Below are positions 1,063 to 43,877 of a DNA stretch of 64,000 bases, one piece after another. Source of the DNA: an uncultured Rivularia sp. (GTDB lineage: Bacteria > Cyanobacteriota > Cyanobacteriia > Cyanobacteriales > Nostocaceae); the NCBI GenBank assembly GCA_963665115.1, contig OY762007.1:6400001-6464000 (forward strand). Direction: 5' to 3'. The notes beneath the pieces are model-generated. The model made no database searches, was not told the DNA's origin, and worked only from the letters and a program-made list of their open reading frames with translations. The translations under genes were made by a program, and so were the position numbers. Every line of letters begins with the position of its first letter. Within the stretch, counting starts at the first letter, position 1.

Positions 1063-1253
1063 CACAATATCCTCAAAACGTGACATTTTCTCTACAAAGT
1101 TTTCGGTTGATTTAACAAACTATATAAGGTAGTCGTTGATAAATTTCAGATTGTTAAGATGCACAAAAATCAGAATCACACAATGAATTTAGTCAAATAA
1201 TTTACCTGCATCGGCTAATTTCGATTAACCTTACACCCTAAGATAGATTAACT

Positions 1254-1883: not shown

Positions 1884-4800
1884 ATGTCTACAGATTTCCC
1901 GGCATTTTCTACAGTGGTTGATTTGATGCAGTACCGCTCGAATCATCAACCCAAACAACAAGGTTATATTTTTCTGGCAGATGGCGATCGCCAGGAAAAT
2001 TCGCTTAACTATAGAGAAACTTGATACAAAAGCGCGAGCAATTGCTGCTCATCTCCAGAGTTTAAATACGATTGGAGAGCGAGCATTATTATTGTATCCG
2101 CCGGGGTTAGAATTTATTGCCGCTTTTTTAGGATGTTTGTACGCGGGTGTTATAGCAGTTCCCGCTTATCCACCAAGGAAAGGGCAGAGTTTGCTCAGGG
2201 TGAAATCTATTGCAGCAGATTCAAGCGCAAAGATTGTATTGACGACTCAATCTTACGCTGATTTTATAGAATCCCAACAAACAGCAAATTTAGCAAATGT
2301 AAAATATGTCATAGCAACTGATAATTTACCCCAAGATTTAGCCGCAAATTGGCAAAAGCCTGCAATTAATGCCGACACTTTAGCTTTCTTACAATATACC
2401 TCTGGCTCTACTGGAAATCCCAAGGGTGTAATAGTGAGTCACGGTAAATTGCTGTATAACGAACAAATTATCAAGCAAGGATTTGGGCATACCCAGGATA
2501 CTACGGTTGTCGGTTGGTTGCCTTTTTATCATGATATGGGACTGATAGGGAATGTATTGCAACCACTGTATTTAGGAATTTGCTCTATTTTAATGCCACC
2601 TGTAACGTTTCTCCAGAAGCCTATACGTTGGTTACAAGCAATTTCTGATTATAAAGCAACTACTAGTGGCGCTCCCAATTTTGCCTACGAGATGTGTTTG
2701 CAAAAAATTACACCTGAGCAGCGAGCAAGTTTAGATTTGAGTTCTTGGGAAGTGGCTTTTTGTGGTGCAGAAACAATTCGTGTTGAGACTTTAGAGAGGT
2801 TTGCTGAAGTATTCGCTGAGTGTGGATTTCGGAAGGAAGCATTTTATCCTTGTTATGGTTTAGCTGAAGCAACATTATTTGTCAGTGGTGGTGAGAAAAC
2901 GGAAGACTATAAAGTATGTCATGTTGAATCCAAAGCTTTAGCAGAAAATCGGATTGAATTATCAACAGATAACCTAACCCCCCAACCTGGGGAGAATAAA
3001 GAAAAATTATCAGATACCGCAATAGTTAGTTGTGGTAGGGTTATAGCGCAAGAAGTTGTCATAGTTAACCCAGATGATTTGTTACCTTATTCTGAAAATC
3101 AAGTCGGAGAGATTTGGGTAAGGGGGGAAAGTATTGCTCAAGGTTATTGGGGAAAAATTAAAGAAACAGCAGAAGTTTTTAAAGGGAAGATAGCGGGTGT
3201 TGAGGAAAAATGCTATTTACGCACGGGGGATTTAGGATTTATCAGGGAAGGGGAATTGTATATAACTGGAAGAATTAAAGATACGATTATTATTCGAGGT
3301 TTAAATTATTACCCGCAGGATATTGAGTTGACGGTAGAACAAAGCCATCCTAGTTTACAACCGGGATGTGGTGCTGCTTTTGGTGTGGAAATTGCCGAAA
3401 GAGCGAAAGAAGAGGGGTTGGTGATAGTTCAGGAAGTTAAGCGAGAAGGTTGGCGGAGTGTTGATGTTGATAGTGCGATCGCATCGATTCGTGCGGCGGT
3501 TTCGCAGCATCATCAGCTACAGGTTTATGCAGTAGTTTTGCTGAAGCCGGGGAGTATTCCGAAGACGACGAGTGGTAAAATTCAAAGGTATGCTTGTCGT
3601 GCTGGTTTTGGAAATGGTAGTTTGAATGCAATTGGTGAGTGGCAGGTTGAAGAGAGCAGAGGGAGCGGAGGAAGCAGAGGAAGCAGAGGAGAAGGAAATG
3701 AGGAATCTAAAATTCGTGCGGATGAGTTGATTGTTTGGCTGAGGGAGTATGCGAGTAGTTATATTAATTCGCGTTTGATTGATGAGCGTCGCTGTATTCC
3801 TCCTCATATTGTTTTGGATTTTGGCAATCGGGGATTGTTGGGAATGCAGGTTCCTGGTGAATACGGTGGTTTGGGATTGGGAAATTATGACACGATGCGG
3901 GTGTTGCAGCAGTTGGGAGCGATTGACACTACTTTATCGCTGTTTGTGGGATTAAATAATATTTTAGGGATTCGTCCGATTTTGCGCTACGGTAGCAAGG
4001 CTTTGCAGGATGAATTATTGCCGATTTTGGCGACGGGAAGAGAATTAGCAGCTTTTGCAATTACTGAGCCTGGTGCTGGATCTAATCCTCAAGGGATAAC
4101 TTCTCAAGCAATTCCTGATAATGGTGGTTGGAGGTTAAGCGGTACAAAGATTTGGAGTGGATCTGCTGCTTGGGCTGGAGTTACGAATGTGTTTGTACGG
4201 CATCAAAATAATGATGGAAGCTGGCAGGGTATTAGCGGTTTCGCTGTGCGAAAAGGTACGGGATTGCGTCAGGGTAAAGAAGCTTTGACAATGGGAATGC
4301 GGGGGATGGTGCAAAATACCGTTTACCTGAATGATGTGGCTGTGAGTGCAGAGCAGATGTTGGGTGAACCTGGTGCTGGAATGCAGGTAGCGCAAGATGC
4401 AATGATGTATGGAAGATTGGCGATCGCCGCTGCGAGTGTGGGAGGAATGAAGCGCTGTACTCAATTAATGTTGCGTTATAGTTCTCGTCGTTCTATTTCG
4501 ACAGGAAAGTTATTAGAGAATCCTTTTGTACTCAAGCGCTTAAGTGAAATTACTGCTGCGATAACTGCTGTCGAAAATTTAGTTTCTCAAGTTGCTCGAC
4601 GATTAGATGCAGGAGAAACGATTCCCCCGGAGATATATACAGCTTGTAAAACTGCTGCTCCCGAATTTTATTGGCAAGCTGCTGATAGTTTAGTACAAGT
4701 ATTGGGTGGACGTGGTTATATTGAAACTAATATAGCGCCACAGATTTTACGAGATGCCAGAATTTTACGTATTTTTGAAGGACCTACAGAAACATTAAAT

Positions 4801-5883
4801 ATGTTTTTAGGTTCAAGAGCGATTCATGAAAGTGACAGTTTGGCAAGTTTTATTAGTGAAAGTTTTCAAGCTCCGGAAGTAGCTGAGAAGTTGCAAGCAG
4901 CAGCTCTTCAAATTTATGGGGAAACCTCACCCCGTCCTGACGGACACCCCTCTCCTTATCAAGGAGAGGGGAAAGCTTCACCCTCTCCTGATGGACACCC
5001 CTCTCCTTACCAAGGAGAGCAGTGCGTTGCGGAGGTTCCCTCCGTTGAAGCAACTGCGGAAGAGGGGATGGGGGTGAGGTTATCTGCGAGTCGTTATGCT
5101 GCGATACTTACAGGTGAAATAACAACTTTTGCGATTCTTTGGGCTGCGTTACATCATACCCAAATAGATTCACCTTCCGAGTCAATTACTAGCGCTATAG
5201 AATGGGTAAAATTTCATTTTGAAGAAAAACTCAGACAAGCTCTATTAAATTCCCAACCTAAAGTTTTATCTTCCGAAGAAAATACCGAATTAATATCTGG
5301 TTACATTGATAGTATCGGCGATATAGAACAAACCCTACCGGGAGAAGATTGGGAATTAGACGAATATTTGAAAAAACAACCTGGGGAGACGTTATATATA
5401 ACGTCTCTACATAACTCCTCAGATCCCTCTACCCCCTCTACCCCCTCTACCCCCTCCACCCCCTCTACCCCCTCTACCCCCTCTACCTCCTCCGCTCCAA
5501 AATCTTCCTCAATCCAAACCTGGCTAATCGACTGGTTGAGTCAGAAATTAAAATTACTTGAAAACAGCATAGATATAAATAAATCTTTTGCTGACTATGG
5601 GATTGATTCAGTGATTGCTGTGGAATTGGCTCAGGATTTACAGGAATGGTTGAATTATCCCCGTGCTATTGAACCCACTATTGCCTGGAATTTTCCTACA
5701 ATTGAATCATTGAGTAATTATCTGGCTCAAACTTTAATCCAAGAAACTTCACTCGATAATCAACCCGAGGAAATTGAACTCCCGTCAGAAAATTCATCAG
5801 ATTTAGAGTCAATGTCTGATGTGGAATTAGCGGAGTTACTCGCAGCAGAAATTAATGCAGTTAAGGGGAGGGGAAGCGAATGA
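1884..5883 (+). CDS. Starter enzyme: fatty acyl-AMP ligase (FAAL) - acyl-CoA dehydrogenase - ACP; +1 frameshift at ~2017-2019
   Basis: Upstream frame from ATG 1884 reads MSTDFPAFSTVVDLMQYRSNHQPKQQGYIFLADGDRQENSLNYRE and joins LDTKARAIAAHL if one A of GAGAAAC is removed. FAAL motifs LQYTSGSTGNPKG, WLPFYHDMGLIG, YGLAEATL, LRTGDLG; ACAD motifs AFAITEPGAGS, LGGRGY, RIFEG; ACP motif YGIDSV. Confidence 0.92.
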
Positions 5884-8800
5884 GTCAGAATGATGCAAAA
5901 ATTGATTATCGTTCGCTGCTGCAAGACGCACTGACAGAAATGCGTTCTTTACGGGGTAAGTTAGAAGCGGAAAAACAAGCCAAAACCGAACCAATTGCAA
6001 TTATTGGAATGGATTGTCGGTTTCCCGGTGGTGCAAATTCTCCGGAAGCTTATTGGAAATTATTACGAGAGGGAATTGATGCAATTAGTGAAGTTCCGAG
6101 GGAACGTTGGTTAATTGATGACTATTACGATTCCGATCCAGATGTTCCGGGGAAAATGTATACTCGTTACGGTGGATTTATTGATAATGTAGATAAATTT
6201 GACCCGCAATTTTTCGGTATATCTCCTCGGGAAGCAACACAAATGGACCCCCAACAGCGTTTGTTGTTGGAAGTTAGTTATACAGCTTTAGAGCGCTCCG
6301 GTCAAAGCGTTCAAGAATTAAATGGCAGTCATACAGGGGTTTTTGTTGGCATCAGCTTCGATGATTATGCTAAATTCAGCCTTAATTCTGGTGACGTTAA
6401 TCGTATTGATGCCTACAGTAGTTTAGGTAATACCCGCAGTATCGCCGTAGGACGTTTATCTTATGCATTAGGTTTACAAGGCCCGACAATGCAGTTAGAT
6501 ACAACCTGCTCCTCTTCTTTACTAGCGACTCATTTAGCTTGTCAGAGTCTGCGTAGTGGTGAATCCAATTTAGCCTTAGCTGGTGGAGTCAGTTTAATGC
6601 TTTCCCCAGAAGCAACTATTGGTTTTTGTAAATTGAAAGCATTAGCACCAGACGGACGTTGTAAAACCTTTGATGCGAATGCTAATGGTTATGTGAGGGG
6701 AGAAGGATGCGGGATTATTGTACTCAAACGACTTTCCGATGCAATAAGTAATAAAGATAATATTCTTGCTGTAATTAAAGGTTCAGCAGTTAACCACGAC
6801 GGACAAAGCAATGGTTTAACCGCTCCCAACGGTTCAGCACAAGAAAATGTAATTCGACAAGCTATAAAAAACGCTCAAGTCAAACCACTACAAATCCAAT
6901 ATGTAGAAACCCACGGAACGGGTACAAGTTTAGGAGATCCAATCGAAACCCTAGCGCTAGGGAAAATACTCGGTGAAGGTAGAAGCGAAGATAACCCCCT
7001 GACAATTGGTTCCGTCAAAACCAACATCGGACATTTAGAAGCAGCAGCGGGAGTTGCGAGCATAATTAAAGTAACCCTAGCGCTAGGGAATAAACAAATT
7101 CCTCCCCATTTACATTTTCAGAAACCGAATCCTCATATACCTTGGTCAAGACTACCGATTAACGTTCCTACCGAACTTACACCTTGGAATGTTGGTAGTG
7201 AAGAAAAGCGTTTAGCTGGGATTAGTTCCTTCGGGATGAGCGGTACGAATGCTCATGTGGTAATTGAAGATGTAGAGACGTTATACATAACGTCTCCCCA
7301 GCAATCAGAACACACCACCGAACGTCCTCTGCATTTACTGACATTATCGGCGAAGACAGAGCAAGCGTTATCGGAACTTGTAACGAATTACCAAGAATAC
7401 TTGACAAATAATAGTGATGTGAATTTTGCGGATATTTGTTTTAGTGCAAATATAGGGCGATCGCACTTTCAACATCGCTTGAGTATCGTTGCTGAATCTA
7501 CATTTGAAGCAATAGAAGAATTATCAAATTACCAAGAAACCTCACCCCGCGCTTACGCGCACCCCTCTCCTTATCAAGGAGAGGGGAAAATCTCAACCGG
7601 CTTTGAACACCCCTCTCCTTACCAAGGAGAGGGGATGGGGGTGAGGTTATTTCAAGGTGTAACATCTACAAATAAACGTCCTAAAATCGCTTTTCTATTT
7701 ACCGGGGAAGCTAGTCAATATATAAATATGGGTTGGGAATTATATCAAACTCAACCAACTTTTAAACAAGCTTTAAATGAATGCAACAAAATACTAAAAT
7801 CATTATTTAATCTAGATTTATTAACTCTTATTTATTCCTCAAAGGGAACGGGGAATGGGGAACAGGAAATAGGGAATCATTCTAACCCAATGCCCAAAAC
7901 CGCAATATTCGCCATACAATACGCTCTATATAAATTATGGAAATCTTGGGGTGTTAATCCTTCGGTATTAATTGGAGATGGGGTTGGGGAATATGTTGCT
8001 GCTACGGTTGCGGGAGTTTTCTGTTTAGAAGATGCATTAAACTTAGTTGTAAATCTTGCTAAGACTGAATTTGATAAAGTAGCAAATTCAATCAAATACT
8101 CTTCACCACAAATTGAGATAATTTCTGGTATTAACGGTAAATTAATTAATTCAGAAATTACAAATTCACAATATTGGTGTAGCAAGATTTCCTTGGCAGC
8201 AAGCTTTGAAAAAATTATTGATAAACTCAAAGAAATTAATTGTGATATTTGTTTAGAAATAGCATTAGAATCCGCAAATTTATTATCAAATGAAATATTA
8301 TTTTTACCAAGTTTCGGAGAAGAAAGTAATAATCATCAAGATTGGCAAGTAATGCTTTCAAGTTTGGCTCAGATGTATGTCAATGGAGTTAATATTAATT
8401 GGCGTGGTTTTGAGCAAGATTATTCTCGAAATTGTGTTTTATTACCAACTTATCCGTTTCAACGTCAGCGCTATTGGATTGAAGCTCCCAATGTTAAAAA
8501 CTTTCACAACATAAATTCGGAAAGTCTACATCCATTATTAGGACAAAGAATTGATATTGCAAATTTAGAAACGATTCATTTTGAAAATCTAATAAATCAA
8601 GATAATCCTGCTTATTTACAACATCATCAAGTATTTGATACGGTAATTATGCCGTTTTCGGGTTTTGTGGAAATGGTATTAGCTGCTGCTAGTAATCTGT
8701 ATGAAACAAAAGCTGAAATAAAAAATCTGTTATTAACTGATGTAGAAATTCATCAAGCTTTGATTTTAGAAAAAAGTTCTACAACAGTACAATTAATTCT

Positions 8801-11800
8801 CACTCCTATCTCTACATCTACAAATAAAGAATATAAATTTGAAATTTTTAGTTTAGCCGTAGGTTGGGTTGAAAGAAGTGAAACCCAACAATCAAGAAGG
8901 TACGAAACACAAAATCAAACTTGGATATTACACACGAGTGGTAAAGTTAATCAAGAGGCAGAGCCTCAACAACCTCGTTACCAGGCTGAGCCTAGTAACG
9001 AGAAATTTACTCACGAAATTGACGTAGATAATTTTTATCAAAGCTGTCAAGAACAGGGAATTAATTATGGTAAAAGTTTTAACGCAATTAATCAACTTTG
9101 GAATGATGAAAAAATTGCTTTAGGGAAAGTTTGTTTATCTCAAGAATTTATTAGTTCTACAGCTTATCAATTACATCCAATACTTTTAGATGCGAGTTTA
9201 CAAGTTGTAGGTTCTGTTTTAGCAGATAATCAAACCTATTTACCGATTGGAATCAAAAGTTTTACTTTTTCTGGAACTACAAGTAATATTCTCTGGAGTT
9301 ATGTAGAACTTGATAAAAATCAAAATCATAATAATAATTCATCTGTGATGATGGCAGATGTCAAAATTGTGGAACCAGATGGACGTTTGGTTGCTCAAGT
9401 TGAAGGTTTAAAATTAAAATCAGTTGATTCTCAATTTGTTTTCAATCAGATAAATAAAAAGCAGTCTTTTGAAGATTGGCTTTATAAAATAGAATGGCGA
9501 GAACAAGCTATTATTCCGAATTCATATAGTTCGTCGGATTATTTATTATCTCCTCAATTAATTTACGAACAGCTTATTCCTGCTTTACCTAAGTTGGTTG
9601 ATAAACCAGAAATTGAAATTTATCGGCAATTATTACCGAAGCTCGAAAGTTTGAGTATTGCTTATGTTTTAAAAGCTTTTAATGATTTGGGTTGGAAATT
9701 TATTGTCGATGAAAGTTTTTCTACGGTAGAAGTTGTTGAAAAGTTAAAAATTGTATCTCAACACAAGCGTTTGTTGGAGCGTTTGTTGGAAATGTTGGTG
9801 GAAGTTGGTGTATTGAAGAAGGAAGAAGATTTAATAAACCGCAGAGGCGCGGAGGGCGCAGAGGAAGAGGTTGTAGAGGAGTGGAGGGTTGTTGGTGAGA
9901 GGATATGTGATGCTGATGATGAATATCAACAATTATTAGAGAAATATTCTGTTAGTAAGAGCGAATTAAGTTTACTGCATCGTTGTGGTTTGAGTTTGGC
10001 TTCGGTGTTACGGGGTGAAGTTGATGGGGTACAGTTGCTGTTTCCGGAGGGGGATTTATCTACAGCAACGAATCTCTATCAAGATTCTCCTGGTGCGAAG
10101 TTGATGAATAGTTTGGTAGAGCAAGTTGTTAGTACGTCAATTGCTCAAAAGTCTAGCGCTAGGGTTTTACGGATTTTGGAAATTGGTGCGGGTACTGGGG
10201 GAACGACTGCATATTTATTACCATCGCTCGATGCTTCTAGTACTGAATATACTTTTAGCGATGTTTCTCCACTGTTTACAACTAAAGCACGGGAGAGGTT
10301 TGGGGAATATGATTTTGTTAATTATGAGTTGTTAGATATTGAGCAGACGGTTGGTGATGAGTTAAAAAATTCCTTTGATATTATTATTGCTGCTAATGTT
10401 TTACACGCGACTCAAGATATGCGGGAAACATTGGGTAATGTCAATGAATTACTTGCTCCTAATGGGTTATTGGTTTTATTAGAAGGAACTCGTCGTTTAC
10501 GTTGGGTTGATTTAATTTTTGGTTTAACTGAGGGTTGGTGGAGATTTACAGATACGGATTTGCGTGAAAATTATCCTTTGCTATCTGTTGGTAAGTGGGA
10601 GGAAGTTTTACTTCATGGTGGATTTGAGGAAGTTTTACCCATAGCTCCTGAGTTGGATGAAGAGGATTTGTTTAGTCAGCAAGCTGTGATTGTTTCAAGG
10701 AAAACCTCACCCCCAGCCCCTCTCCTTGTTAAGGAGAGGGGAGATTGGTTAATTTTTGGCGATCGCCGTTTTAATATTGGTAAGGAGTTAGCGCAACAGT
10801 TACAAAACCAAGGTGAAAGATGTATCTTGGTTTATTCGGGTACGGTGAAGGAACAACTCAACGAACAAGAATTCAGCATTAATCCAAGGAATTCCCAGAA
10901 TTTTAGTCAATTAATTGAAAATCTATCAAATTATCAATCATCTTTCAAAGGAGTTGTATATCTTTGGGGTTTGGATGCGACTCCTGTTGAAAATCTTAAT
11001 TCCGAAGTGCTGGAAGTTGATTTGGAAAACTATTGCGGTAGCGCTTTATATTTGATTCAAGCTTTGTTGAAAGTTAATATATCAAATACTCCTATATATT
11101 TAGTCACACAAAATTCTCAACCAATAGGAAACAATACAATATCTGGATTCTCCCAATCTTTGTTATGGGGTATTGGTAAAGTAGCAGCGCTCGAAACTGA
11201 TTTTAATTATAAAAATATAGATTTAGATGCACAAACAAATCTAACAGCACAGATACAAACTTTATTAACTGAATTACTATGGTCAGACGAGGAAACACAA
11301 GTTGCTTTCAGAGGTGACAAACGTTATGTTGCTAGATTGGCAAGATATCAAAATTTAGTTCAAAAGCAACCGTTACAATTAACAATTTCCGAACGAGGAA
11401 CTTTAGAAAACCTGGAATTTCAACCCTTAGTTAGAAAGAAACCAGCAGATAATGAAGTTGAAATTCATGTCAAAGCAACAGGAGTTAATTTCCGAGATAT
11501 TTTAAATACTTTGGGATTATATCCGGGGGATGCTGGTGCTTTAGGATGTGAATGTGTAGGTGAAATAGTAGCGCTAGGGAATCAAGTCGAAAATTTAAAG
11601 GTTGGGGATACTGTTATAGCGATTGCTTCAGGAAGTTTCAGCGAGTATGTCACTGTCAATGCTGCAATGGTAGTTGTTAAACCAGAAAAACTTACTATTG
11701 AAGAAACTGCCACAATTGGGGTGACTTTCCTAACTGCACATTATGGTTTACATCATCTTGCGAAAATTTCCCCTGGTGACAAAGTACTGATACATTCCGG

Positions 11801-13619
11801 TGCTGGTGGTGTCGGACAAGCAGCGATTCAAATAGCGCAACAAGCTGGTGCTGAAGTCTTTACAACAGCAAGTCCTGGTAAATGGGAAGTTTTAAAATCA
11901 ATGGGAATTGAGCGTAAAAACATCTTCAATTCCCGTACCCTTGATTTTGCAGAGGAAATAATTAAACTAACCCAGGGTGAAGGGGTAGATATTGTTCTCA
12001 ATTCCTTGTCTGGAGATTTTATTACTCAAAGTTTTTCTCTACTCAAAGACAACGGAAGATTTATAGAGTTGGGTAAAACACAAGATTGGAATTTCACTAA
12101 ATCTCAACTAAAACCAAATGCAGCTTATTTCCCAGTTGATTTAGTAGACTTGTGTCGTCAACAACCCGATTTAATTCAAACCATGCTACGAGATTTGATA
12201 TCTCAATTTGCAGCAAATAAACTCAAACCCCTTCCTTACACTGTTTTCCCATTTGAACAAACCGTCGATGCTTTCCGCTATATGCAGCAGTCTAAGCATA
12301 TTGGTAAAGTTGTAGTTTCTCAAACCTCAGCCCTACAAACCTCACCCCCAACCCCTCTCCTTATTAAGGAGAGGGGAGATGAAGCGCAGCTTTATCGGGG
12401 TGAGGTTGCGACTGCTCCCTCTATCAAAAAAGATGGTACATACCTCATCACAGGTGGACTCGGTGGATTGGGTTTATTAATTGCTGAGTGGTTAGTTAAA
12501 GAAGGTGCGAGAAATTTAGTTTTAGTCAGTCGTCGTGATGTTGATGCAGAAGCTAAACAACGAATTCAAGCTTTAGAAAACTCTAGCGCTAGAGTAATGG
12601 TTGCTCAAGTTGACGTTACTGATAAATCCCAACTCGCGGAATTAATATCAACAATTAAATATTCTACCCCCTCTACCCCCTCTACCCCCTCTCCCCCCTC
12701 TCCCCCTCCCATAAGGGGAATAATCCACGCTGCTGGTGTATTAGACGATGGTGTTTTACAAAATATGAGTTGGGAGCAATTTACTAATGTTGTTCATCCC
12801 AAGGTTCTCGGTGCTTGGAATCTCCACGATTTAACTCAAGATTGTCCTTTGGATTTCTTTGTATTATTCTCTTCAGCTACAGCTTTACTTGGTTCTCCCG
12901 GACAGAGCAATCACGTAGCTGCAAATGTATTTTTAGATTCCTTAGCTCATTATCGTCAAAATATTGGTAAACCGGGATTGAGTATTAATTGGGGAATTTG
13001 GTCGGATGTGGGTTCGGCTGCTAAACGCAATGCTGACAAAGAAATGCAGCTTAAAGGAATAAATGCGATCGCACCGCAAGATGGTATAGATTTATTTGCA
13101 AAAATATTGTGGTCTGATGCTCCTCAAATTGGTGTTTTACCAATTAATTGGTCGCAGTTTTTACAACAAATTAATTCATCATTTTTCGCTGATTTTATAT
13201 CGTCAAATGTAGAAACGCAATATATAACGTCTCTACAAAATGCAAAACCATCAGAACGTCGTCATCTTTTAGAAACACATTTACGAACTCAAATTTCCCA
13301 AATTCTTGGTTTTCAAGCAGATGAAATTGATGCAGAAGCAGGATTTTTTGATTTGGGAATGGATTCTTTAACTTCAGTAGAATTGAAAAATCGGTTACAA
13401 AAAAGTTTAGGAATTTCTCTCAGTTCAACTATTATCTTTGATAGACCAAATTTAAATACATTAGTAGATTATCTCCTTGAAGAAATGGGTTTGGAAAATA
13501 ACGAGGTGGAACAAAAGCCAGTTGAATTAGAAACAGAATCAACAGAATTTTCTGAAGATGACATTGCTGATTTACTGGTTCAAGAATTAATGGAAATTGA
13601 GCGAGGTAAAAAATCATGA
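5880..13619 (+). CDS. Type I PKS module 1: KS - AT(inactive) - DH - C-methyltransferase - ER - KR - ACP
   Basis: KS DTTCSSSL, HGTGT, GHLE; AT remnant GDGVGEY with no Ser; DH HPLLG, HHQVFDTVIMP, HPILLDASLQ; MT LEIGAGTGG, ANVLHAT; ER LIHSGAGGVG; KR GGLGGLG; ACP LGMDSL. ATGA overlap with the upstream gene. Confidence 0.95.
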   Translation: MSQNDAKIDYRSLLQDALTEMRSLRGKLEAEKQAKTEPIAIIGMDCRFPGGANSPEAYWKLLREGIDAISEVPRERWLIDDYYDSDPDVPGKMYTRYGGFIDNVDKFDPQFFGISPREATQMDPQQRLLLEVSYTALERSGQSVQELNGSHTGVFVGISFDDYAKFSLNSGDVNRIDAYSSLGNTRSIAVGRLSYALGLQGPTMQLDTTCSSSLLATHLACQSLRSGESNLALAGGVSLMLSPEATIGFCKLKALAPDGRCKTFDANANGYVRGEGCGIIVLKRLSDAISNKDNILAVIKGSAVNHDGQSNGLTAPNGSAQENVIRQAIKNAQVKPLQIQYVETHGTGTSLGDPIETLALGKILGEGRSEDNPLTIGSVKTNIGHLEAAAGVASIIKVTLALGNKQIPPHLHFQKPNPHIPWSRLPINVPTELTPWNVGSEEKRLAGISSFGMSGTNAHVVIEDVETLYITSPQQSEHTTERPLHLLTLSAKTEQALSELVTNYQEYLTNNSDVNFADICFSANIGRSHFQHRLSIVAESTFEAIEELSNYQETSPRAYAHPSPYQGEGKISTGFEHPSPYQGEGMGVRLFQGVTSTNKRPKIAFLFTGEASQYINMGWELYQTQPTFKQALNECNKILKSLFNLDLLTLIYSSKGTGNGEQEIGNHSNPMPKTAIFAIQYALYKLWKSWGVNPSVLIGDGVGEYVAATVAGVFCLEDALNLVVNLAKTEFDKVANSIKYSSPQIEIISGINGKLINSEITNSQYWCSKISLAASFEKIIDKLKEINCDICLEIALESANLLSNEILFLPSFGEESNNHQDWQVMLSSLAQMYVNGVNINWRGFEQDYSRNCVLLPTYPFQRQRYWIEAPNVKNFHNINSESLHPLLGQRIDIANLETIHFENLINQDNPAYLQHHQVFDTVIMPFSGFVEMVLAAASNLYETKAEIKNLLLTDVEIHQALILEKSSTTVQLILTPISTSTNKEYKFEIFSLAVGWVERSETQQSRRYETQNQTWILHTSGKVNQEAEPQQPRYQAEPSNEKFTHEIDVDNFYQSCQEQGINYGKSFNAINQLWNDEKIALGKVCLSQEFISSTAYQLHPILLDASLQVVGSVLADNQTYLPIGIKSFTFSGTTSNILWSYVELDKNQNHNNNSSVMMADVKIVEPDGRLVAQVEGLKLKSVDSQFVFNQINKKQSFEDWLYKIEWREQAIIPNSYSSSDYLLSPQLIYEQLIPALPKLVDKPEIEIYRQLLPKLESLSIAYVLKAFNDLGWKFIVDESFSTVEVVEKLKIVSQHKRLLERLLEMLVEVGVLKKEEDLINRRGAEGAEEEVVEEWRVVGERICDADDEYQQLLEKYSVSKSELSLLHRCGLSLASVLRGEVDGVQLLFPEGDLSTATNLYQDSPGAKLMNSLVEQVVSTSIAQKSSARVLRILEIGAGTGGTTAYLLPSLDASSTEYTFSDVSPLFTTKARERFGEYDFVNYELLDIEQTVGDELKNSFDIIIAANVLHATQDMRETLGNVNELLAPNGLLVLLEGTRRLRWVDLIFGLTEGWWRFTDTDLRENYPLLSVGKWEEVLLHGGFEEVLPIAPELDEEDLFSQQAVIVSRKTSPPAPLLVKERGDWLIFGDRRFNIGKELAQQLQNQGERCILVYSGTVKEQLNEQEFSINPRNSQNFSQLIENLSNYQSSFKGVVYLWGLDATPVENLNSEVLEVDLENYCGSALYLIQALLKVNISNTPIYLVTQNSQPIGNNTISGFSQSLLWGIGKVAALETDFNYKNIDLDAQTNLTAQIQTLLTELLWSDEETQVAFRGDKRYVARLARYQNLVQKQPLQLTISERGTLENLEFQPLVRKKPADNEVEIHVKATGVNFRDILNTLGLYPGDAGALGCECVGEIVALGNQVENLKVGDTVIAIASGSFSEYVTVNAAMVVVKPEKLTIEETATIGVTFLTAHYGLHHLAKISPGDKVLIHSGAGGVGQAAIQIAQQAGAEVFTTASPGKWEVLKSMGIERKNIFNSRTLDFAEEIIKLTQGEGVDIVLNSLSGDFITQSFSLLKDNGRFIELGKTQDWNFTKSQLKPNAAYFPVDLVDLCRQQPDLIQTMLRDLISQFAANKLKPLPYTVFPFEQTVDAFRYMQQSKHIGKVVVSQTSALQTSPPTPLLIKERGDEAQLYRGEVATAPSIKKDGTYLITGGLGGLGLLIAEWLVKEGARNLVLVSRRDVDAEAKQRIQALENSSARVMVAQVDVTDKSQLAELISTIKYSTPSTPSTPSPPSPPPIRGIIHAAGVLDDGVLQNMSWEQFTNVVHPKVLGAWNLHDLTQDCPLDFFVLFSSATALLGSPGQSNHVAANVFLDSLAHYRQNIGKPGLSINWGIWSDVGSAAKRNADKEMQLKGINAIAPQDGIDLFAKILWSDAPQIGVLPINWSQFLQQINSSFFADFISSNVETQYITSLQNAKPSERRHLLETHLRTQISQILGFQADEIDAEAGFFDLGMDSLTSVELKNRLQKSLGISLSSTIIFDRPNLNTLVDYLLEEMGLENNEVEQKPVELETESTEFSEDDIADLLVQELMEIERGKKS

Positions 13620-16600
13620 ATCAGCAGCAACCAAGAGATTATCGCTCTCTCATGCAGAAAGCTTTGCACGAACTAAAAGAAATGCGTGCAAAATTACAAA
13701 CATTAGAAACAGCAAAAACCGAACCAATTGCGATTATTGGAATGGGATGTCGTTTTCCTGGTGCTGATAATCCCCAAGCTTTTTGGGAACTTTTATCTAA
13801 TGGGATTGATGCTATTTCTGAAGTTCCTTCTGATAGATGGGATATCAACGCTTATTTTGATAATAATCCTGAAACACCAGGAAAAATAAATACTCGCTAC
13901 GGTGGATTTGTTAAGCAACTGTATGAATTTGATGCTGCATTTTTTGGTATTTCTCCCCGTGAAGCTGTTTCTTTAGATCCCCAGCAGCGATTGTTGATGG
14001 AAGTTAGTTGGGAAGCTTTGGAAAATGCGGGTATTATTCCTACAATACAAGGAAGTAAAACTGGTGTATTTGTCGGTATTAGCAGTAATGATTATTCTCA
14101 ACAGTTACTTACCAGGGAAGTAACCGATATTGATGCTTATTTAGCAACGGGTAATTCTCACAGTACCGCAGCTGGACGTTTATCATATACTTTGGGTTTA
14201 ACTGGACCAAGTATAGCAGTAGATACAGCTTGTTCTTCATCCTTGGTTGCAGTTCACCTTGCTTGTCAAAGCTTACGGAATCAAGAGTGTGATTCAGCAC
14301 TTGTGGGGGGAGTAAATCGACTGATATCGCCAGAATTCAGCATCAACTTTTCCAAAGCTCGAATGTTAGCTGCTGACGGACGTTGTAAAACCTTTGATGC
14401 AGCCGCAGACGGATTTGTACGAGGAGAAGGATGCGGAATTATTATACTCAAACGACTTTCGGATGCAATTGCAGATGGAAACTCAATTTTGGCGTTGATT
14501 CGAGGTTCAGCAGTTAATCAAGATGGTCGTAGTAGTGGATTAACTGTTCCTAATGGTCCTTCACAACAAGCGGTGATTTCCCAAGCTTTAGAAAACAGTC
14601 AAATCAAACCATCGCAGATTGATTATATAGAAGCTCACGGTACCGGAACAAGTTTAGGCGACCCAATCGAAATTAATGCATTAGGTTCCGTTTTCGGAAA
14701 ATACTATAGTGCAGATAATCCTCTAAAAATTGGTTCGGTTAAAACTAACATTGGTCATTTAGAAGCAGCAGCAGGAATCGCAGGAATAATTAAATTAGTA
14801 CTATCGCTTCAAAATCAACAAATTCCCCCTCACCTACATTTTCAACAACCAAATCCTTATATACCTTGGAAAGAATTGCCAATTGAGGTGACAACAGAAA
14901 CTACACCTTGGTTAATTTCTGATAGTCCACGATTTGCAGGTATGAGTTCCTTTGGTTTTAGCGGTACAAATGCTCATCTGATATTACAAGATGTAGAGAC
15001 GTTATACATAACGTCTCACCAGGAATTAGAAAACACAACAGAACGTCCACTACATTTACTGACATTATCAGCAAAGACAGAACAAGGATTATCAGAGCTT
15101 GTAAAGAATTACCAAGAATACTTGACAAAAAATAGTGATGTTAAATTTGCAGATATTTGTTTTAGTGCAAATACAGGGCGATCGCACTTTCAAAATCGCT
15201 TAGTTGTTATTGCTAAGTCTTATGAGGATGTACTTCAACAACTAGTAAATAACGAAAATCCGGAGACGTTATGTATAACGTCTCTACACAATGGTTCTGT
15301 TTTTACTGGAACAACATCTAATAAACGTCCTAAAATCGCTTTTTTATTCACTGGTGGAGATAGTGAATATATAAAAATGGGTTTACAACTATATCAAACT
15401 CAACCCACTTTTAAAAAAGCATTAGATGAATGCAATGAAATAATAAAACAATTAATTAACTTAGATTTAATAGCTCTTATTTATTCTCCCCCCTCTACCC
15501 CCTCTACCCCCTCTACCCCCTCTACCCCCTCCCTCAATACCGCTTACTTCGCCATAAAATACGCTTTATACAAACTCTGGAAATCTTGGGGAATACATCC
15601 AGATATCGTAATTGCAGATGGTATTGGTGAATATGTTGCTGCTACGGTTGCAGGAGTTTTTAGTTTAGAAGATGGATTGAAATTAGTTGAAAATATTGAT
15701 AAACCGGATTTTGAAAAAGTTGCTAATTCAATTAAATATTCATCACCACAAATTGAAATATTTTCTGGTATTAGCGAAAAATTAATTGATTCAGAAATTG
15801 TAAATCATAAATATTGGTGTAAGAAGACTTGGCAATCAGTTAGCTTTGATAAAATTATTGATAATCTCAAGCAAAATAATTGTGAGATTTGTTTAGAAAT
15901 AGGTGGTAAATCCGCCAAATCTACATCAACAGAAATATTATTATTGCCAAGTTTGGCATCAGAAGAAAATAATAATAATTGGCAGGTAATGCTATCAAGT
16001 TTGGCTCAAATGTATGTTAATGGAGTCAATATTGATTGGCAAGGATTTGAGCAAGATTATCGTAGAAATCGCGTTTTATTACCAACTTATCCATTTCAGC
16101 GACAGCTATATTATGCTGATGTAACTCCTAAATTAACTAAAACTATTCATCAAAAAAATATTTTACATCCACTATTAGGCGAAAAACTGGATTTATCCCG
16201 CTCAAATAAAATTTATTTTCAACATTCTATTAATTCAAATAATCCCGCTTATCTACAACAGCATCTAGTTTTTGATAAAGTTATTCTTCCCGGTGCTGGT
16301 TATATCGAAATGGCTTTAGCCGCAGGAAGTATTTTGTTTAATACAGATAATTTAATTTTAGAAAACCTGGAAATTCTCCAACCTTTAATATTATCTGATG
16401 ATGCAAATACAACTATTCAAGTTGTTTTAGAATCTCAGCAAGAAGAATATAACTTTGAAATTTTAAGTCTGCTGACAAAAGAAGAAAAATGGATATTACA
16501 CGCGAAAGGGAAAATCAAAAAATGTAGAGACGTGATACATCACGTCTCCCAAATGCACGAGAAAAACGAGATAAATCCCGTCTCCCAGATGTATAAGAAA

Positions 16601-19600
16601 AACGACATAAATCCCATATCTACATCAAAATACTATCAAGAATTCCAAAAACGCGGTATTAAATACGGAGAAAGTTTTCAAGCTATAACCGAATTATTTG
16701 GTAGCGAAAATCAAGCTTTAGGAAAGATTAAATTACCAGCTTCCTTAACAAATAATGGTTATAAACTCCATCCAGTAATGTTAGATGCTGCTTTTCAGGT
16801 GATTGGAGCGGCTTTAAATTGGGAAGAGTTTACGGATATTTATTTACCAGTTGGTTTTGAGAGTTTAACTCACTATGGTAATGTAAATGATTCTTTCTGG
16901 AGTTCGGTAAAAATTCATCCTCAGCAAAAGCAATTCCCTCAATTATTGATAGCGGATGTAGAATTAATTGCTGACGATGGAAAAATTTTAGTTAATATAT
17001 CTGGCTTACAACTGAGAAAAACGAATCCTCAAGCTGTTTTTGAAAGAAATGAAAATCAATCAAAATCAAAATTCTTTGAAGATTGGCTTTATGAAGTAGA
17101 ATGGCGCAATAAAGGAGATATTGAAAAAGTTTATCCCGATTATTTCCCAATTCCTTCAGCAGTACGAGATAATTTACTGACAAATTTAGAAAAATCACTA
17201 GCACAACCGGAATTACAAGTTTATCAACAAGTTTTAGTACAGCTTGAAGAATTGAGTATTGCTTATGTATTAAATGCTTTTGATTCTTTGAATTTACAAC
17301 TTATTCCTAATCAAACTTTTTCAACATCTGAATTAATTCAAAGTCTGGAAATAGTACCATCACATCAGCAATTATTTCAACGTCTTTTAGAAATGCTGGT
17401 GGAATCGGGTTATCTACAGCAACAGCAAGAAAAATTTAAAGTCGTTAAACAACCCCAAATATTAAACCCTGAAATTGAATATCAAAAATTATTAGCTCAA
17501 TATCCTAACGCAAACGCTGAATTAACATTATTACATCGTTGTGGAATTAATTTAGCTGAAGTATTACAGGGTAAAGTTGATTCTTTACAATTACTTTTCC
17601 CTCAAGGAGATTTAACTACTGCTACTCAACTTTATCAAGATTCACCTGGTGCTAAATTAATGAATTCTTTGGTAAAGCAGGTTGTACGGTCGTTATTAAC
17701 AAATAAACCTGAAAATAGAAAATTAAAAATATTAGAAATTGGTGCTGGTACTGGAGGAACCACTTCTTATTTACTGCCAATTTTAGATTCTAATATTACT
17801 GAATATACTTTTAGTGATGTTTCACCGTTATTCCTTCATAAAGCAAAGCAGAAGTTTTCTAAATATGATTTTGTCGATTATCAAACTTTAGATATTGAAA
17901 AATCTCCTGTTAGTCAAGGTTGGGAATTACAGCAGTATGACATTATTATTGCAGCGAATGTTTTACACGCGACTTGTGATTTAGAACAAACTTTGACTCA
18001 CGTACAGCAGTTGTTAGCACCGAAGGGACAACTTGTATTGCTCGAAGGTACTCAACCACAGCGATGGTTGGATTTGATTTTTGGTTTGACTGAGGGTTGG
18101 TGGAGGTTTACGGATACTGATTTACGTTCGGATTATCCTTTAATTTCTTTTGAAAAATGGCGATCGCTTTTATTGAAGTGTGGGTTTGAATCAGTTGCGG
18201 GGTTTGATACGCAACCGCAAGGGGTGGTTTTGGCGCGGAAGACTCGGAATTTAATAAACCGCAGAGACGCAAAGAGCGCTGAGGGAAGAGGTGGAGAGAG
18301 ATGGTTGATTTTTGCTGATAGTCACGGTTTGGGTGAGGAGTTAGCTCGACGGTTAGGAAGTAATTGTGTTTTGGTTTTTGCAGGAATTAATTATCAGCAG
18401 TTAGATGAATACCGTTATCAAGTTAATCCTTTAGTTAAAAATGATTTTGAGCGGTTGTTGGAAGGTGTAAGGGAAAATGCTGCTGTAGAAATTGTGCATT
18501 TATGGAGTTTGGATATTCCTACAATTTCGGAAATGACTGACGAGCAGGTACAGTTATCTTCGCAGTTGGGTTGTGCTAGTGTTTTACATTTGGTGCAATC
18601 TATTGATAGTAATCAGTCTTTGTGGTTGGTGACTCAAGGTGCGATTAATGTCGGAGATGATCAAGCTGGTGGTGTTATTCAATCTCCTTTGTGGGGTTTG
18701 GGAAAGGTTATTGGTTTGGAGTATCCGGGTGTTGGTGGTTTCTGTATCGATTTAGATCCAACTATTCCGATAGCGGAAACAGTCATCGGGTTTGATTTCG
18801 GAAATTTTATCTAAGAGTAAGGAAGAGCAAGTTGCTTTTCGTCAAAATCAGCGTTTTGTTCCCAGGTTGGTAAGATCCCCCCAACCCCCCTTCTTAAGGG
18901 GGGCTAATCAACTCTCTTTTTCAAACGAAGCTTCTCAATCCTCTTCAGACAGAGCTTCTCAACTCGCCTTCTCAAATGGGGCTTCTCAACCCCCCTTAAG
19001 AAGGGGGGCTAGGGGGGATCTTCAACTGGGAATATCCAAACGCGGAACTTTAGAAAATCTGGAATTACAACCTCTTTCACGAAGAAAACCCCAAGAAAAC
19101 GAAGTAGAAATTCAAGTACAAGCAACGGGTTTGAATTTTATTGATGTGCTTGATGCTTTGGGTTTATTACCTTTTGAACGTAATTGGTTTGGGGTGGAAT
19201 GTGCTGGTGAAGTTGTTGGTGTGGGAGATGAGGTAAAAGATTTTAAACCGGGCGATCGCATAATTGCTTTAGCACCAGGTAGTTTTAGTCAGTTTGTCAC
19301 AACTGATGCGAGGATGGTTATTCTCAAACCTGAAAATCTCAGCTTTGAGGAAGCAGCTACTATTCCCGCGAATTTTTTGACTGCTTATTACGCTTTAAAT
19401 AAAATAGCCAAAATTTCCATCGGAAAGCGGGTTTTAATTCATTCTGCTGCTGGGGGAACTGGAATGGCTGCGGTGAAAATCGCACAACAAGCGGGTGCGG
19501 AAGTATTTGCAACTGCGAGTCTTCCGAAATGGGAGAAGCTTGAAGCAATGGGAATTAAACGTGAAAATATTTTTAATTCCCGCACTTTGGACTTTGCTGA

Positions 19601-21362
19601 AGAAACTATTGCGATAACGCAAGGGAAAGGAGTAGACATTGTTCTTAATTCCTTATCTGGTGATTTTATCGATAAAAGTTTTTCTGTATTGAAAGCAGAT
19701 GGCTGTTTTCTCGAAATTGGAAAGCGGGATGTCTGGAGTTTAGAACAGGTAAAACAAGTTAAGCCAAATGCACAATATTCTTTAATTGATTTGATGAGTG
19801 TGGCTCAACATCAGCCAGATTTGATTCAATCAATGTTGCAAGATTTGATGCAGCTATTTGGAAATGAACAGCTTCAACCCTTACCACGTCAAGTTTTTTC
19901 GATTCAAAATGTAATATCGGCTTTCCGTCATATGCAGCAAGCGAAGCATATTGGGAAAGTTGTGGTTTCAACCTCACCCCCAACCCCTCTCCTTATTAAG
20001 GAGAGTGGAGATGAAAATGCAACAGTTCCAACCCCTCTCCTTGACAAGGAGAGGGGAGATGAAGCGCAGCTTTATCGGGGTGAGGTTATTAATTTTGAAG
20101 AAAACGCTACCTATCTCATAACAGGTGGATTGGGAGACTTAGGTTTATTATTCGCTGAATGGTTAATACAAAAAGGTGCGAAAAATCTAGTTTTAGTCAG
20201 TCGTCGTGATGTTGATGCAGAAATTCAAAAGCGGATTCAAGCTTTAGAAAACTCTAGTGCTAGAGTAATGGTTGCTCAAGTTGATGTCACCAATAAATCC
20301 CAACTTGCTCAATTAATCTCAAACATCAAATCTTCTACCCCCTCTTCCCCCTCTCCCCCCTCTCTACCACCTTTACGGGGAATAATCCACGCTGCTGGTG
20401 TATTAGATGATGGAGTATTACAACATTTAACTTGGGAAAGATTTACCACCGTACTAAATCCCAAAATGCTGGGAGCTTGGAATTTACACGTTTTAACCCA
20501 AGATTTACCGCTAGACTTTTTTATTATGTTCTCTTCTGCTGCTTCTTTGTTTGGTTCCCCTGGGCAAGGTAATCATGTTGCAGCAAATACCTTTTTAGAT
20601 AGTTTAGCCAAGTATCGTCAATCGCGAAGATTGCCCGGATTAAGCATTAATTGGGGTGTTTGGTCGGAAATTGGAGCCGCAGCAAAACGTGGTGTCAGCG
20701 AACAGATGCAGTCACGTGGGGTAGGTGAAATTACTAACGAGCAAGGATTGAAAATCTTTGAAAAATTACTTGCTCAATCTTCTGCTCAGATTGGAGTAAT
20801 ACCAGTTGATTGGGACAAGTTTTTACAACAAAATATTTCATCACCATTTTTTACAGACTTTCTTAACTCAAATTCAAATTCACAATTACTTAAGCAAGAC
20901 TCTCAATTATTACAAAAATTAGAAAGAGCAAATATTGAACAACGTTCTTCTATCGTCATGGGACATCTGCAAGCTGAAGTCGCTAAAGTTCTCGGACTTC
21001 CTTCCAATCAATTACCCGGTTTACAACAAGGCTTTTTTGATTTGGGTATGGATTCTTTAATGACTGTGGAATTAAGAAACCGTTTAGAAACTAGTTTGGG
21101 AATTTCTATCTCTTCCACCGTGATTTTTGAATATCCAACTATTGCTGATTTGGCTGAGTATTTAGTTGGGGAAGTGTTTGGAGGAAGGGAGGAATATGTT
21201 TTTAACGCAGAGGAGCGCGAAGGTAAACGCAAAGGAGCGCAGAGTTTTTCGGTTGATAGTGGAAATGATATTAATTTTTCTGTTCCCTCTGAGGAGGAAG
21301 ATGAGGTGATATCAGAATTACTAGCGCTAGAGAAAATACTGGGGAAAAATCAAGATGACTAA
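13616..21362 (+). CDS. Type I PKS module 2: KS - AT(inactive) - DH - C-methyltransferase - ER - KR - ACP; split by +1 frameshift at ~18777-18779
   Basis: ORFs 13616..18814 and 18792..21362 join (AE-QSSGLISEILSK) on removing one A from GGAAAC. Same architecture as module 1: KS DTACSSSL, AT remnant ADGIGEY, MT LEIGAGTGG, ER LIHSAAGGTG, KR GGLGDLG, ACP LGMDSL. Confidence 0.93.
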
Positions 21363-24300
21363 GGAATTTACTCAAGAACGAATTTTATCAGCTTTAAAGG
21401 AAGCTAGAACTAAACTTGAAGCTGTAGAAGAATCCAAGAATGAGCGAGTAGCTATTGTTGGTATGGCTGGACGTTTTCCTGGAGCTAATAATATTGATGA
21501 GTTTTGGCAAAATCTTTGTAATGGTGTCAATTCGATTCAATTTTTATCTGATGAAGAGCTTTTGAATTCTGGTGTTGATGCAGATACTTTAAATAATCCT
21601 AATTACGTCAAAGCTTATTCTAGTTTTGCTGATTTTGATGGTTTTGATGCCAGTTTTTTCGGTTATTCTCCCAGAGAAGCTGAAGTTATCGACCCCCAGC
21701 ATCGGGTGTTTTTGGAATGTGCTTGGGAGGCTTTGGAACAAGCTGGATACGACCCCGGAACAATACAATGGTGCGATCGGTGTTTATGGTGGTTCGTCTC
21801 TCAATAGTTATATTATTAACCTTTTTTTAAATACAAATTTAAGAGCAAATACTGATAATATCCAAGCTGTTATTAGTAATGTGATGGGATTAATGCCCAC
21901 AAGAGTATCTTATAAATTAAATCTTACCGGCCCAAGTTGTGGAGTACAAACTGGCTGTTCTACTTCTTTGGTAAGCGTGCATCTTGCCTGTCAAAGTTTG
22001 CTGAATGGTGAGTGTAGTATAGCTTTGGCTGGTGGTGTTTCTGTTGCTGCTGACGGTAAATCTGGTTATCTTTATCAAGCTGATGGTGTGTTATCCCCTG
22101 ACGGATATTGTCGCTCTTTTGATGCTAAGGGAGAAGGAACGGTTTTTGGTAATGGTGTTGGGATAGTCGTATTAAAAAAACTCAGTGATGCAATAGCCGA
22201 TGGTGACTGTATTTATGCGGTTATCAAAGGTTCGGCAATTAACAACGATGGCTCGCAAAAAGTTGGGTTAACTGCTCCCTCCGTAAGGGGACAAGCAGAA
22301 GTTATCGCTGCAACTTTAGAAAAAGCCGGAATTAATCCCGAAACAATTGGTTATATTGAAGCTCATGGTACGGGTACAGCATTAGGAGATCCGATTGAAA
22401 TTGCCGCTTTAAATAAAGTATTTCGTCAACATACCCAAGACAGAAAATTTTGTGCGATCGCTTCAGTTAAAAGCAATATCGGACATTTAGATGCAGCTGC
22501 GGGAATCGCGGGTTTAATTAAAGCAGCATTAGCAGTTAAATATGGCAAAATTCCCCCCAGTCTTAATTTTGAATCTCCCAATCCTCAAATAGATTTTGAT
22601 AACAGTCCTTTTTACGTTAATAATCAACTGCTCAATTGGGATAGTAATGGTACACCACGAAGAGCTGCTGTTAGTTCCTTTGGGATGGGTGGGACTAATG
22701 CTCATATGGTATTGGAAGAAATTAACCTCACCCCGCCCTTACGGGCACCCCTCTCCTTATCAAGGAGAGGGGAAGAGTATCAAACACCCCTCTCCTTAAC
22801 AAGGAGAGGGGATGGGGGTGAGGTTAAATCGTGGCAACTGTTATTAATTTCTGCTAAAACCCCAACAGCATTATCTACAGCTACAAATAATCTCTCAGAA
22901 TATTTAAAATCCCATCCAGATGTTAATTTAGCCGATGTCGCTTACACCTTACAAATAGGAAGACAAGCACAAGATTTAAGACGTTTTATTGTTTGTAAAA
23001 ATCATCAACAAGCAATTCAAATTCTGAGTAATATTAATGATGATTCCTCAATAACTCAAACGAACCAAGCTGCAAATAAAACTGTAGTTTTCATGTTTTC
23101 TGGACAAGGTAGTCAATATGAAAACATGGGAAAAGAATTATACGAAACACAATCAGTATTCCGAGAAACTGTAGATAATTGCTGCAATTTACTAAAACCC
23201 CATATCGGTTTCGATTTAAGAACCATTATTTATTCTATCCCCTCTACCCCCTCTACCCCCTCTCCCCCCTCTACCCCTCTCTCCCTTAACCAAACTGCTT
23301 ACGCTCAACCAGCCATATTCGTCATCGAATACGCTTTAGCTAAATTATGGATGTCGTGGGGAATTCGTCCGCAAGCCTCTATTGGACATAGTATTGGGGA
23401 ATATGTTGCAGGTGCGATCGCCAATGTATTTTCTTTAGAAGATGGTTTAGAGATTGTGGCAATGCGGGGACAATTAATGCAAAAATGTCCTCCGGGAGCA
23501 ATGTTAGCGGTAAGTTTAACTGAATCGGAACTGAAGCAACATTTAAATAAAGATTTGACAATTGCGGTTATAAATGCACCAAAAATGTGTGTCGTATCTG
23601 GTAATAATGATGCGATAAAACAATTAGAAAAGGATTTAACTGCTCAAGAAATTACTTGTCGTCGTTTACATACTTCTCATGCTTTCCATTCTCCGATGAT
23701 GCAGCAAGCGGTAGAACCTTTTGTAGCGAAAATGCAGCAGGTAAAATTAAATCCACCTTCTTTACCTTTTATATCCAATGTAACAGGAACTTGGATTACT
23801 CCCGAACAAGCAACAGATGCAAATTACTGGGGAAATCATCTGCGTCAAACGGTGCGTTTTGCTGATGGAATGAATCAAGTATTAGAGCAATCATCACCAA
23901 TTTTATTGGAAGTGGGAGCGGGAAGAACTTTAAGTACTATTGCAAAACAAGCTATAACAAATCAAAAACAATCTGTACTTTCATTAACTTCGTTACGACA
24001 TCCTTTAGAGAAAAAATCCGATATTGATTTAATTTTAAATACATTGGGACAACTTTGGAAGTCAGGAATCAAGGTTGATTGGAATGGTTTTTATCAAGAT
24101 GAAAAGCGACAAAGAATTCCTCTACCTACCTATCCTTTTGAACGCAAACGCTATTGGATTGAACGTCAGGAAAATAGTGTTGCACCAGAGGAAGAAGATT
24201 TACAAATAATTAAAAAGTCAGATATTGCTGATTGGTTTTACCTTCCTTCCTGGAAACGTTCTGTACCTGTAAACCTAACCCCCCAACCCCCTTCCCTGCG

Positions 24301-43742: not shown

Positions 43743-43877
43743 AATATTTAGGGAATAGGGAATAGGGAACAGGGAATAGACAACAAGGGATTATCACAAT
43801 AAACTACTCCTATCTCTCTTATTTTCTTCCTCTGCGCCCTCAGCGTCTCTGCGGTTTTTTTCTCAGTAATCTTACTC

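Follow-up and report, generated by a model that had tools for sequence, protein, structure and literature searches.

Acyltransferase remnants in two consecutive polyketide synthase modules of an uncultured Rivularia that are probably loaded in trans

Polyketide synthase (PKS) modules with a dead or missing acyltransferase (AT) domain are already known from the colibactin, PipC, barnesin, and aureothin systems. As far as the available parts of these reports state, the elongating modules of ClbK and ClbO in colibactin carry ATs (AT*) that are "ancestral inactive relics" in a line also holding intact ATs, with no graded series of orthologues described there (bioRxiv 10.1101/530204); FabD serves the AT-less PipC in vitro (PMC12828459) and is the reported loader for BrnF of barnesin (PMC13096860), no dedicated AT being encoded in either genome; and one AT of aureothin loads successive modules within one protein (PMC9899208). 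For algae, displacement of the AT has been proposed, the order of steps being called unclear (PMC4661987). Here we analyzed a cluster of PKS and nonribosomal peptide synthetase (NRPS) genes in a 64,000-nucleotide (nt) stretch of DNA from an uncultured Rivularia sp. (OY762007.1, positions 6,400,001 to 6,464,000, forward strand), hereafter the window, to which nt coordinates refer unless stated otherwise. The first two PKS modules have lost a working AT and, judged from sequence, are probably loaded in trans by an enzyme outside the module, so that they would work like the AT-dead modules above. What is new is that three AT states, intact, remnant, and absent, occur within one orthologous cluster; in the full-text literature, where subscription journals are largely outside coverage, we found no account of AT loss in this cluster.

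The modules concerned are listed below (KS, ketosynthase; DH, dehydratase; cMT, C-methyltransferase; ER, enoylreductase; KR, ketoreductase; ACP, acyl carrier protein; aa, amino acids; ORF, open reading frame). G000 denotes the window's genome and other G numbers other genomes, L numbers orthologous loci, P numbers proteins, and X1 to X3 sequencing runs.

5880..13619, + strand: PKS module 1, KS - AT remnant - DH - cMT - ER - KR - ACP, 2579 aa (profile and motif evidence)
5988..7274, + strand: KS1, DTTCSSS / ETHGTGT / KTNIGH (motifs)
7683..8459, + strand: AT remnant 1, 259 aa, GDGVG replacing GHSxG, junction ~8046-8075 (motifs and alignment)
13616..21362, + strand: PKS module 2, KS - AT remnant - DH - cMT - ER - KR - ACP, in two ORFs owing to an assembly error at 18777
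13721..14998, + strand: KS2, DTACSSS / EAHGTGT / KTNIGH (motifs)
15332..16096, + strand: AT remnant 2, 255 aa, ADGIG replacing GHSxG, junction ~15686-15715 (motifs, alignment, and model)
21355..26335, + strand: PKS module 3, KS - intact malonyl-type AT - KR-like - ACP, with an assembly error at 21753
23081..24139, + strand: intact AT3 (GHSIG, Arg, HAFH), candidate donor, in which 23474-23713 is the part missing from the remnants (motifs and alignment)

A sequence-only reading of the window had described the two ATs as "identically gutted" and as an intermediate between cis-AT and trans-AT. Both have lost the catalytic serine, GHSxG being replaced by GDGVGEY (7974) in module 1 and ADGIGEY (15614) in module 2, and GQGSQ has decayed to GEASQ (7704) and GGDSE (15353), as that reading stated; in module 1, LEDALNLV (8025) is followed by FDKVANSIKYSSP at 8070. 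The two share a common junction, but at 67% identity they are not letter-identical. The AT region measures 259 aa in module 1, 255 aa in module 2, and 353 aa in module 3, which retains GQGSQ (23102), GHSIGEY (23384), RGQLMQ (23465), and HAFH (23678). Pfam PF00698, a profile of 319 positions, matched the remnants over positions 2-115 and 2-113 and module 3 over 1-283; these matches exceed the cut-off, so annotation tools will call such remnants ATs. When the remnant was aligned to CurL of curacin (4MZ0), residues 1-120 matched 580-703 and residues 125-255 matched 794-929, with nothing aligned between; the missing segment holds the catalytic Arg, the small subdomain, and HAFH, bearing out the deletion that had been proposed. 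Single-sequence structure prediction gave a pLDDT of 31, and KS2 together with the remnant was modeled instead by AlphaFold2 from an alignment of 21 rows; the mean pLDDT of this model was 80, with about 89-92 across the junction, and its best fold match was the CurL KS-AT (Z 58.7, root mean square deviation 4.0, 736 residues aligned). The fold predicted for the remnant is that of the large AT subdomain.

The other domains are in place, also as first read: the KS Cys-His-His, DH His/Asp, cMT, ER, and ACP serine motifs are all present in modules 1 and 2. A complete KS triad and ACP serine next to a nonfunctional AT are what would be expected of an AT-dead module loaded in trans. The embedded AT of an ordinary cis-AT module, with its GHSxG serine, Arg, and (H/Y)AxH histidine, is absent from modules 1 and 2 and present in module 3; neither KS1 nor KS2 lacks the catalytic His or Cys, as the KS of a non-elongating KS0-AT0 module does; and the arrangement of canonical trans-AT systems, a KS flanking subdomain without an AT body, is not seen in the window, being found in L058, L061, and L100. 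A dedicated free-standing AT, the other mark of such systems, was found neither in G000 nor in the clusters of G061 and G064. By these features modules 1 and 2 do not qualify as ordinary cis-AT modules, as a canonical trans-AT system, or as non-elongating modules. As judged by their closest relatives, their KSs are ordinary cyanobacterial cis-AT KSs: the best solved relative is CurL (842 bits, vs 436 bits for PksL), and KS1 is 68-77% identical to orthologous KS1s whose AT is intact. The KRs of modules 1 and 2 have His at the position where Tyr is usual. We rejected this as a sign of decay because His is normal for methyltransferase modules: within the first 120 homologues, 11 of 12 KRs from methyltransferase modules have it, as do four proteins named PuwB.

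Compared with described systems, CurL is the best match to the KS-AT in both sequence and fold, with its own AT intact, and PuwB of puwainaphycin agrees in its KS-AT-DH-MT-ER-KR-ACP order and its KR histidine, with 41-44% identity across DH-MT and, again, an intact AT. The KS regions of ClbC and ClbK match the window KSs; neither protein was among the matches listed in either fold search with the KS2-remnant model. We take the colibactin cluster to encode its own trans-AT, ClbG, whereas the window's cluster encodes none. L058, L061, and L100 share the anatomy of PipC and BrnF. According to the PipC report, however, PipC homologues are all AT-less (PMC12828459), whereas the window's module descends from a cis-AT ancestor, still has about 255 AT residues, and has mostly cis-AT orthologues. 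The 133-160 aa stretch from the KS end to LPTYPF in the AT-less orthologues is close to what the alignment to 7ZMA shows as the KS flanking region of canonical trans-AT PKSs (bacillaene type); unlike such PKSs, the present cluster encodes no AT of its own, has KSs of cis-AT type, and keeps modules 3 and 4 in cis.

The sequence-only reading had proposed an orthologue check, and close orthologues indeed share the deletion. A full-length match to the remnant (E < 1e-90) was found in 10 of 26 same-genus genomes, and all 15 copies, from 11 genomes including G000, are in frame and without GHS; the gap begins at the identical position and spans 80 residues in 14 copies and 86 in one. All of these copies group together (FastTree support 1.0), those of module 1 being interleaved with those of module 2, a pattern suggestive of a single deletion that then spread by duplication or gene conversion. 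Ratios of nonsynonymous to synonymous substitution (dN/dS; Nei-Gojobori, 3-5 genomes per domain, dS 0.35-0.53, pairs not independent) were 0.09-0.12 for KS, 0.25-0.45 for DH, 0.21-0.25 for cMT, 0.17 for ER, and 0.13-0.21 for KR, with 0.43 for the remnant and 0.20 for the intact AT3. Over the 227 retained AT columns, dN/dS was 0.39 in the remnant (7 sequences) vs 0.09-0.21 in four intact lineages, while that of KS1 was 0.11 in remnant carriers vs 0.05-0.10 in other lineages. By these figures the modules are maintained under purifying selection, and the remnant is relaxed, yet not neutral. The outcome that would have spoken for simple decay, intact orthologues together with relaxed modules, was thus not what we found, as close orthologues carry the deletion and the other domains are constrained.

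A wider comparison revealed a graded series. A dehydrogenase-domain scan gave 59 loci, whose first PKS module was classified as having an intact AT (33), a remnant (7), or no AT (3), as cut by a contig end (4), or as lacking a parsed KS end (12). After L057 and L060 (other architecture) were left out, 41 orthologous module-1 copies could be scored: 32 with an intact AT, 6 with a remnant, and 3 without any AT. Five of the six remnants come from the group of the window's genus; the sixth, L094, has a different junction and groups with intact Nostocaceae copies (support 100/98), and on this placement it is of independent origin. In the AT-less L058, L061, and L100, the KS-AT linker directly joins the post-AT linker, and the distance from the KS end to LPTYPF is 133-160 aa vs 435-539 in intact copies; KS, DH, cMT, ER, KR, and ACP are retained, and L061 and L100 are AT-less in both modules. 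In G064 the remnant is confined to module 1, module 2 keeping its AT, and G365 and G444 show the identical gene order with all three ATs intact. Distant orthologues with an intact AT or none fit a slide from cis to trans. A dehydrogenase-plus-KS1 tree (34 rows, 14 near-duplicate or short rows being left out) needs three changes of AT state, and a tree in which the remnant group and the AT-less rows were forced together was not rejected (approximately unbiased test, p-AU 0.42). "Intermediate" is therefore correct for the anatomy, while descent of the AT-less forms from a remnant of the window type is by these trees neither shown nor rejected. A fuller scenario, in which the family repeatedly converts from cis to trans stepwise, with the remnant a true precursor of the AT-less form and one embedded downstream AT charging three carrier proteins on three polypeptides without a trans-AT gene, seems to us unlikely.

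Until now, arguments about the shift from built-in to shared loading enzymes have relied on distant comparisons. In the present cluster, one and the same module occurs in three states among related cyanobacteria that include cultured strains, namely Calothrix parasitica NIES-267 (L051, in genome G065; remnant), Leptolyngbya sp. JSC-1 (L100, genome G061; AT-less), and Capilliphycus salinus (L078; intact), and these permit a matched test of the effects of AT loss and of the replacement enzyme. Moreover, the repeated natural deletion points mark where a module tolerates removal of its AT, which is of use in PKS engineering.

Methyltransferase, KR, DH, and ER domains act on a beta-ketoacyl chain. 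Since all four are maintained here, modules 1 and 2 should elongate and should need malonyl-ACP, and since their AT is dead and there is no dedicated AT gene, loading in trans is likely. The window holds no free-standing AT gene, as had been noted, and among eight PF00698 matches in the whole of G000 FabD alone is free-standing; its gene sits in a plsX-fabH-fabD operon. FabD is likewise the only free-standing AT in the AT-less G061, where N gaps of 880 and 12224 bases leave slight room for doubt. In the mechanism that we propose, the FAAL-dehydrogenase protein would start the line with an unsaturated fatty acyl chain, and an outside enzyme, most likely the housekeeping FabD, would charge ACP1 and ACP2 with malonyl. 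Modules 1 and 2 would each add one malonyl unit, C-methylate it, and reduce it fully, and module 3, the monooxygenase, and the NRPSs would complete an uncharacterized, probably metal-binding lipopeptide. In the genome of L051, a 350-codon stand-alone AT-like ORF lies in another PKS cluster (G065:C1:4964984-4965865), with no counterpart among the PF00698 matches of G000.

The sequence-only reading had named the AT of module 3 or FabD as donor and had called AT3 the only intact AT. This holds within the window, but a fourth PKS module, ~50 kb upstream of it, is also intact, and of the loading proposal the trans part stands while the choice of donor is not settled. FabD, which we prefer tentatively, agrees with the position of ACP1, two modules away from the next intact AT, and with the PipC and barnesin precedents. 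That ACP2 and ACP1 receive malonyl from the AT embedded in module 3 (or 4), which would act across separate polypeptides, is a credible but somewhat doubtful alternative: the AT3 motifs are intact wherever seen, including G061, and G064 has lost the module-1 AT only, as a step in which the next module takes over loading would predict, yet AT3 evolves like the other intact ATs, with no sign of a changed role, and it would have to reach an ACP1 two modules off. The aureothin AT offers a precedent for serving successive modules, but it does so within one polypeptide (PMC9899208), whereas here two separate upstream proteins would have to be served. Service by both enzymes, or self-acylation of the carrier proteins, appears highly improbable. 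Several observations weigh against FabD or, more broadly, against elongation with loading in trans. Fatty-acid ACPs are acidic, and helix II of ACP1 and ACP2 is near neutral in the loss lineages (net -1 to +2), with no shift relative to intact lineages; this charge comparison revealed no FabD-adapted signature, which favors an embedded donor. In all loss lineages the directly following module carries an intact AT, and no AT loss in module 3 was seen among the loss lineages examined, again as an embedded donor would have it. In unrelated clusters, similar remnants often adjoin a KS without catalytic motifs (G027, G017, G031, P0046, P0089), so that a remnant alone does not imply elongation. Finally, the two chain extensions are deduced from domain maintenance.

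The unrelated remnants also bear on the idea that modules 1 and 2 are non-elongating and merely hand on the acyl chain, like KS0-AT0 modules; the cyanochelin B line is likewise drawn with a non-elongating KS (PMC12628792, figure legend). This is very unlikely here, as the KS1 and KS2 triads are complete, and the cMT, KR, DH, and ER, which need a beta-ketoacyl product, are constrained and are kept in the AT-less orthologues. The remnant could instead be a docking pad that recruits an outside AT, as its predicted fold and dN/dS of 0.39-0.43 would allow, but three orthologues do entirely without it and its constraint is half that of intact ATs, which makes such a role improbable. The same facts weaken the earlier suggestion that the remnant is kept as a scaffold; because orthologues dispense with it, we regard it as probably a tolerated packing spacer that persists under relaxed constraint. 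Least credible is decay of the cluster, with the AT loss as pseudogenization. Frameshifts do interrupt four cluster genes in the assembly, and the remnant shows an approximately twofold relaxation, but every domain has a dN/dS well under 1, the entire cluster is in open frames in G026, and fabD is frameshifted in the assembly as well. Three of the four sites were checked against read contigs (2017, 18777, and 21753; the fourth is near 33405): each is a single extra base missing from the contigs of runs X2 and X3, and for these three we reject decay on that ground. The X1 contigs carry the extra base at 2017 and 21753; all three runs belong to a single study, and the assembly may derive from them. 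Contigs span both AT remnants without any difference. Outside the cluster, an argD-like aminotransferase gene (60234-61497; label by eye) is frameshifted, as is fabD (G000:C1:4552039-4552872), which fits residual long-read indel errors. Loading of modules 1 and 2 in trans remains the reading that we prefer.

Deletions of the same subdomain with other junctions occur in unrelated clusters (G031, G006/G022, G019/G003/G007, G028, G027, G017, and several proteins). In G031:C115:78884-87940, an AT lacking the small subdomain has its nearest relative in the AT of the adjoining intact module (support 1.0), a recent independent deletion. Short AT remnants also lie in modules with MT or reductive domains, beside intact or further degenerate ATs, in P0012, P0032, P0039, P0074, and P0075; P0074 has the deletion and still reads GHSVG.

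The remaining cluster genes in the window run divergent from the gene of an AMIN-domain TonB-dependent receptor.

1..1086, - strand: AMIN-domain TonB-dependent receptor, 5' part (Pfam AMIN and Plug; TIGR01783 below cut-off on the fragment; a neighbor in many orthologous loci)
1884..5883, + strand: starter protein, FAAL - acyl-CoA dehydrogenase - ACP (approximate start; the ORF as listed opens at 1981 owing to the assembly error at 2017)
26436..27500, + strand: MupA-family luciferase-like monooxygenase (TIGR04020, 521 bits, over cut-off)
28808..33415, + strand: NRPS, C-A-T-E (assembly frameshift at the 3' end, near 33405)
33759..41822, + strand: NRPS, C-A-T-C-A-T-E, without thioesterase (profile matches)
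42060..45572, + strand: two ABC transporters, ABC_membrane_2 / SbmA-BacA-like (Pfam)

Among named organisms, Calothrix parasitica NIES-267 and Plectonema cf. radiosum LEGE 06105 come closest, with 94% over the dehydrogenase domain. In module 3 the KS is of hybrid type (QTGCSTS), the ACP is PCP-like (GGHSL), and the KR cofactor motif is unusual (GDLIEGLG), and yet the module is preceded by a PKS module (21355-24139, 25169-25762); the activity of its KR is uncertain from these motifs, although its dN/dS is 0.14. After the thioesterase-less NRPS the line likely carries on at a second locus beyond the window. In G064 and G061 the two NRPS genes are followed contiguously by C-A-T, a fourth PKS module, more NRPS, and a terminal protein of 1050-1106 aa, which we take to be a reductive release enzyme; in G000 the same second half (C-A-T, PKS module 4 with its intact AT, NRPS, terminal protein) lies outside the window at G000:C1:6320845-6361672 (- strand). 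It is ~45-60 kb upstream and on the other strand in both G000 and G026, and in G000 an array of large repetitive proteins separates it from the window's part.

The TonB-dependent receptor gene suggests that the product is a metallophore. Anabaena PCC 7120 alr2678-alr2680 is presumably of this cluster type. The genes alr2679 and alr2680 are listed as FurA-bound PKS genes (PMC4788461), and the published FurA box consensus (PMC4005646) had 0 matches in the window at ≤3 mismatches. A candidate site with a TTGAGAA core near 1818-1836, similarly placed in L051 and L055, is a lead only. By eye, the A-domain motifs of the parsed modules resemble, on assignments that we presume, those for beta-Ala, Gly/Ser, Val, and Cys, and none is Asp-like. 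A cyanochelin cluster would be marked by modules that load Asp and by aspartate beta-hydroxylases, which give beta-OH-Asp.

Among the orthologous loci, the operon of Nostocaceae G119, G104, and G428 (L124-L132) ends after modules 1 and 2, module 3 not being adjacent, with ATs intact where measured. In G015 (G015:C390:29924-32227), a 768-codon ORF, possibly a mobile element, lies between the starter gene and module 1. The window also encodes a large glycine-rich repeat protein (47181-56595; 2673 aa plus a 451-aa upstream piece), probably a single gene split by a frameshift. Short genome-wide repeats are found in frame in the PKS/NRPS linkers (HPSPYQGEG, TPLLIKERG, PSTPST, VETLYITS), for example at about 4920-5080, 7570-7650, 12340-12380, 15485-15535, and 20060-20100; one 12-mer has 15 copies in the window and 84 across the genome.

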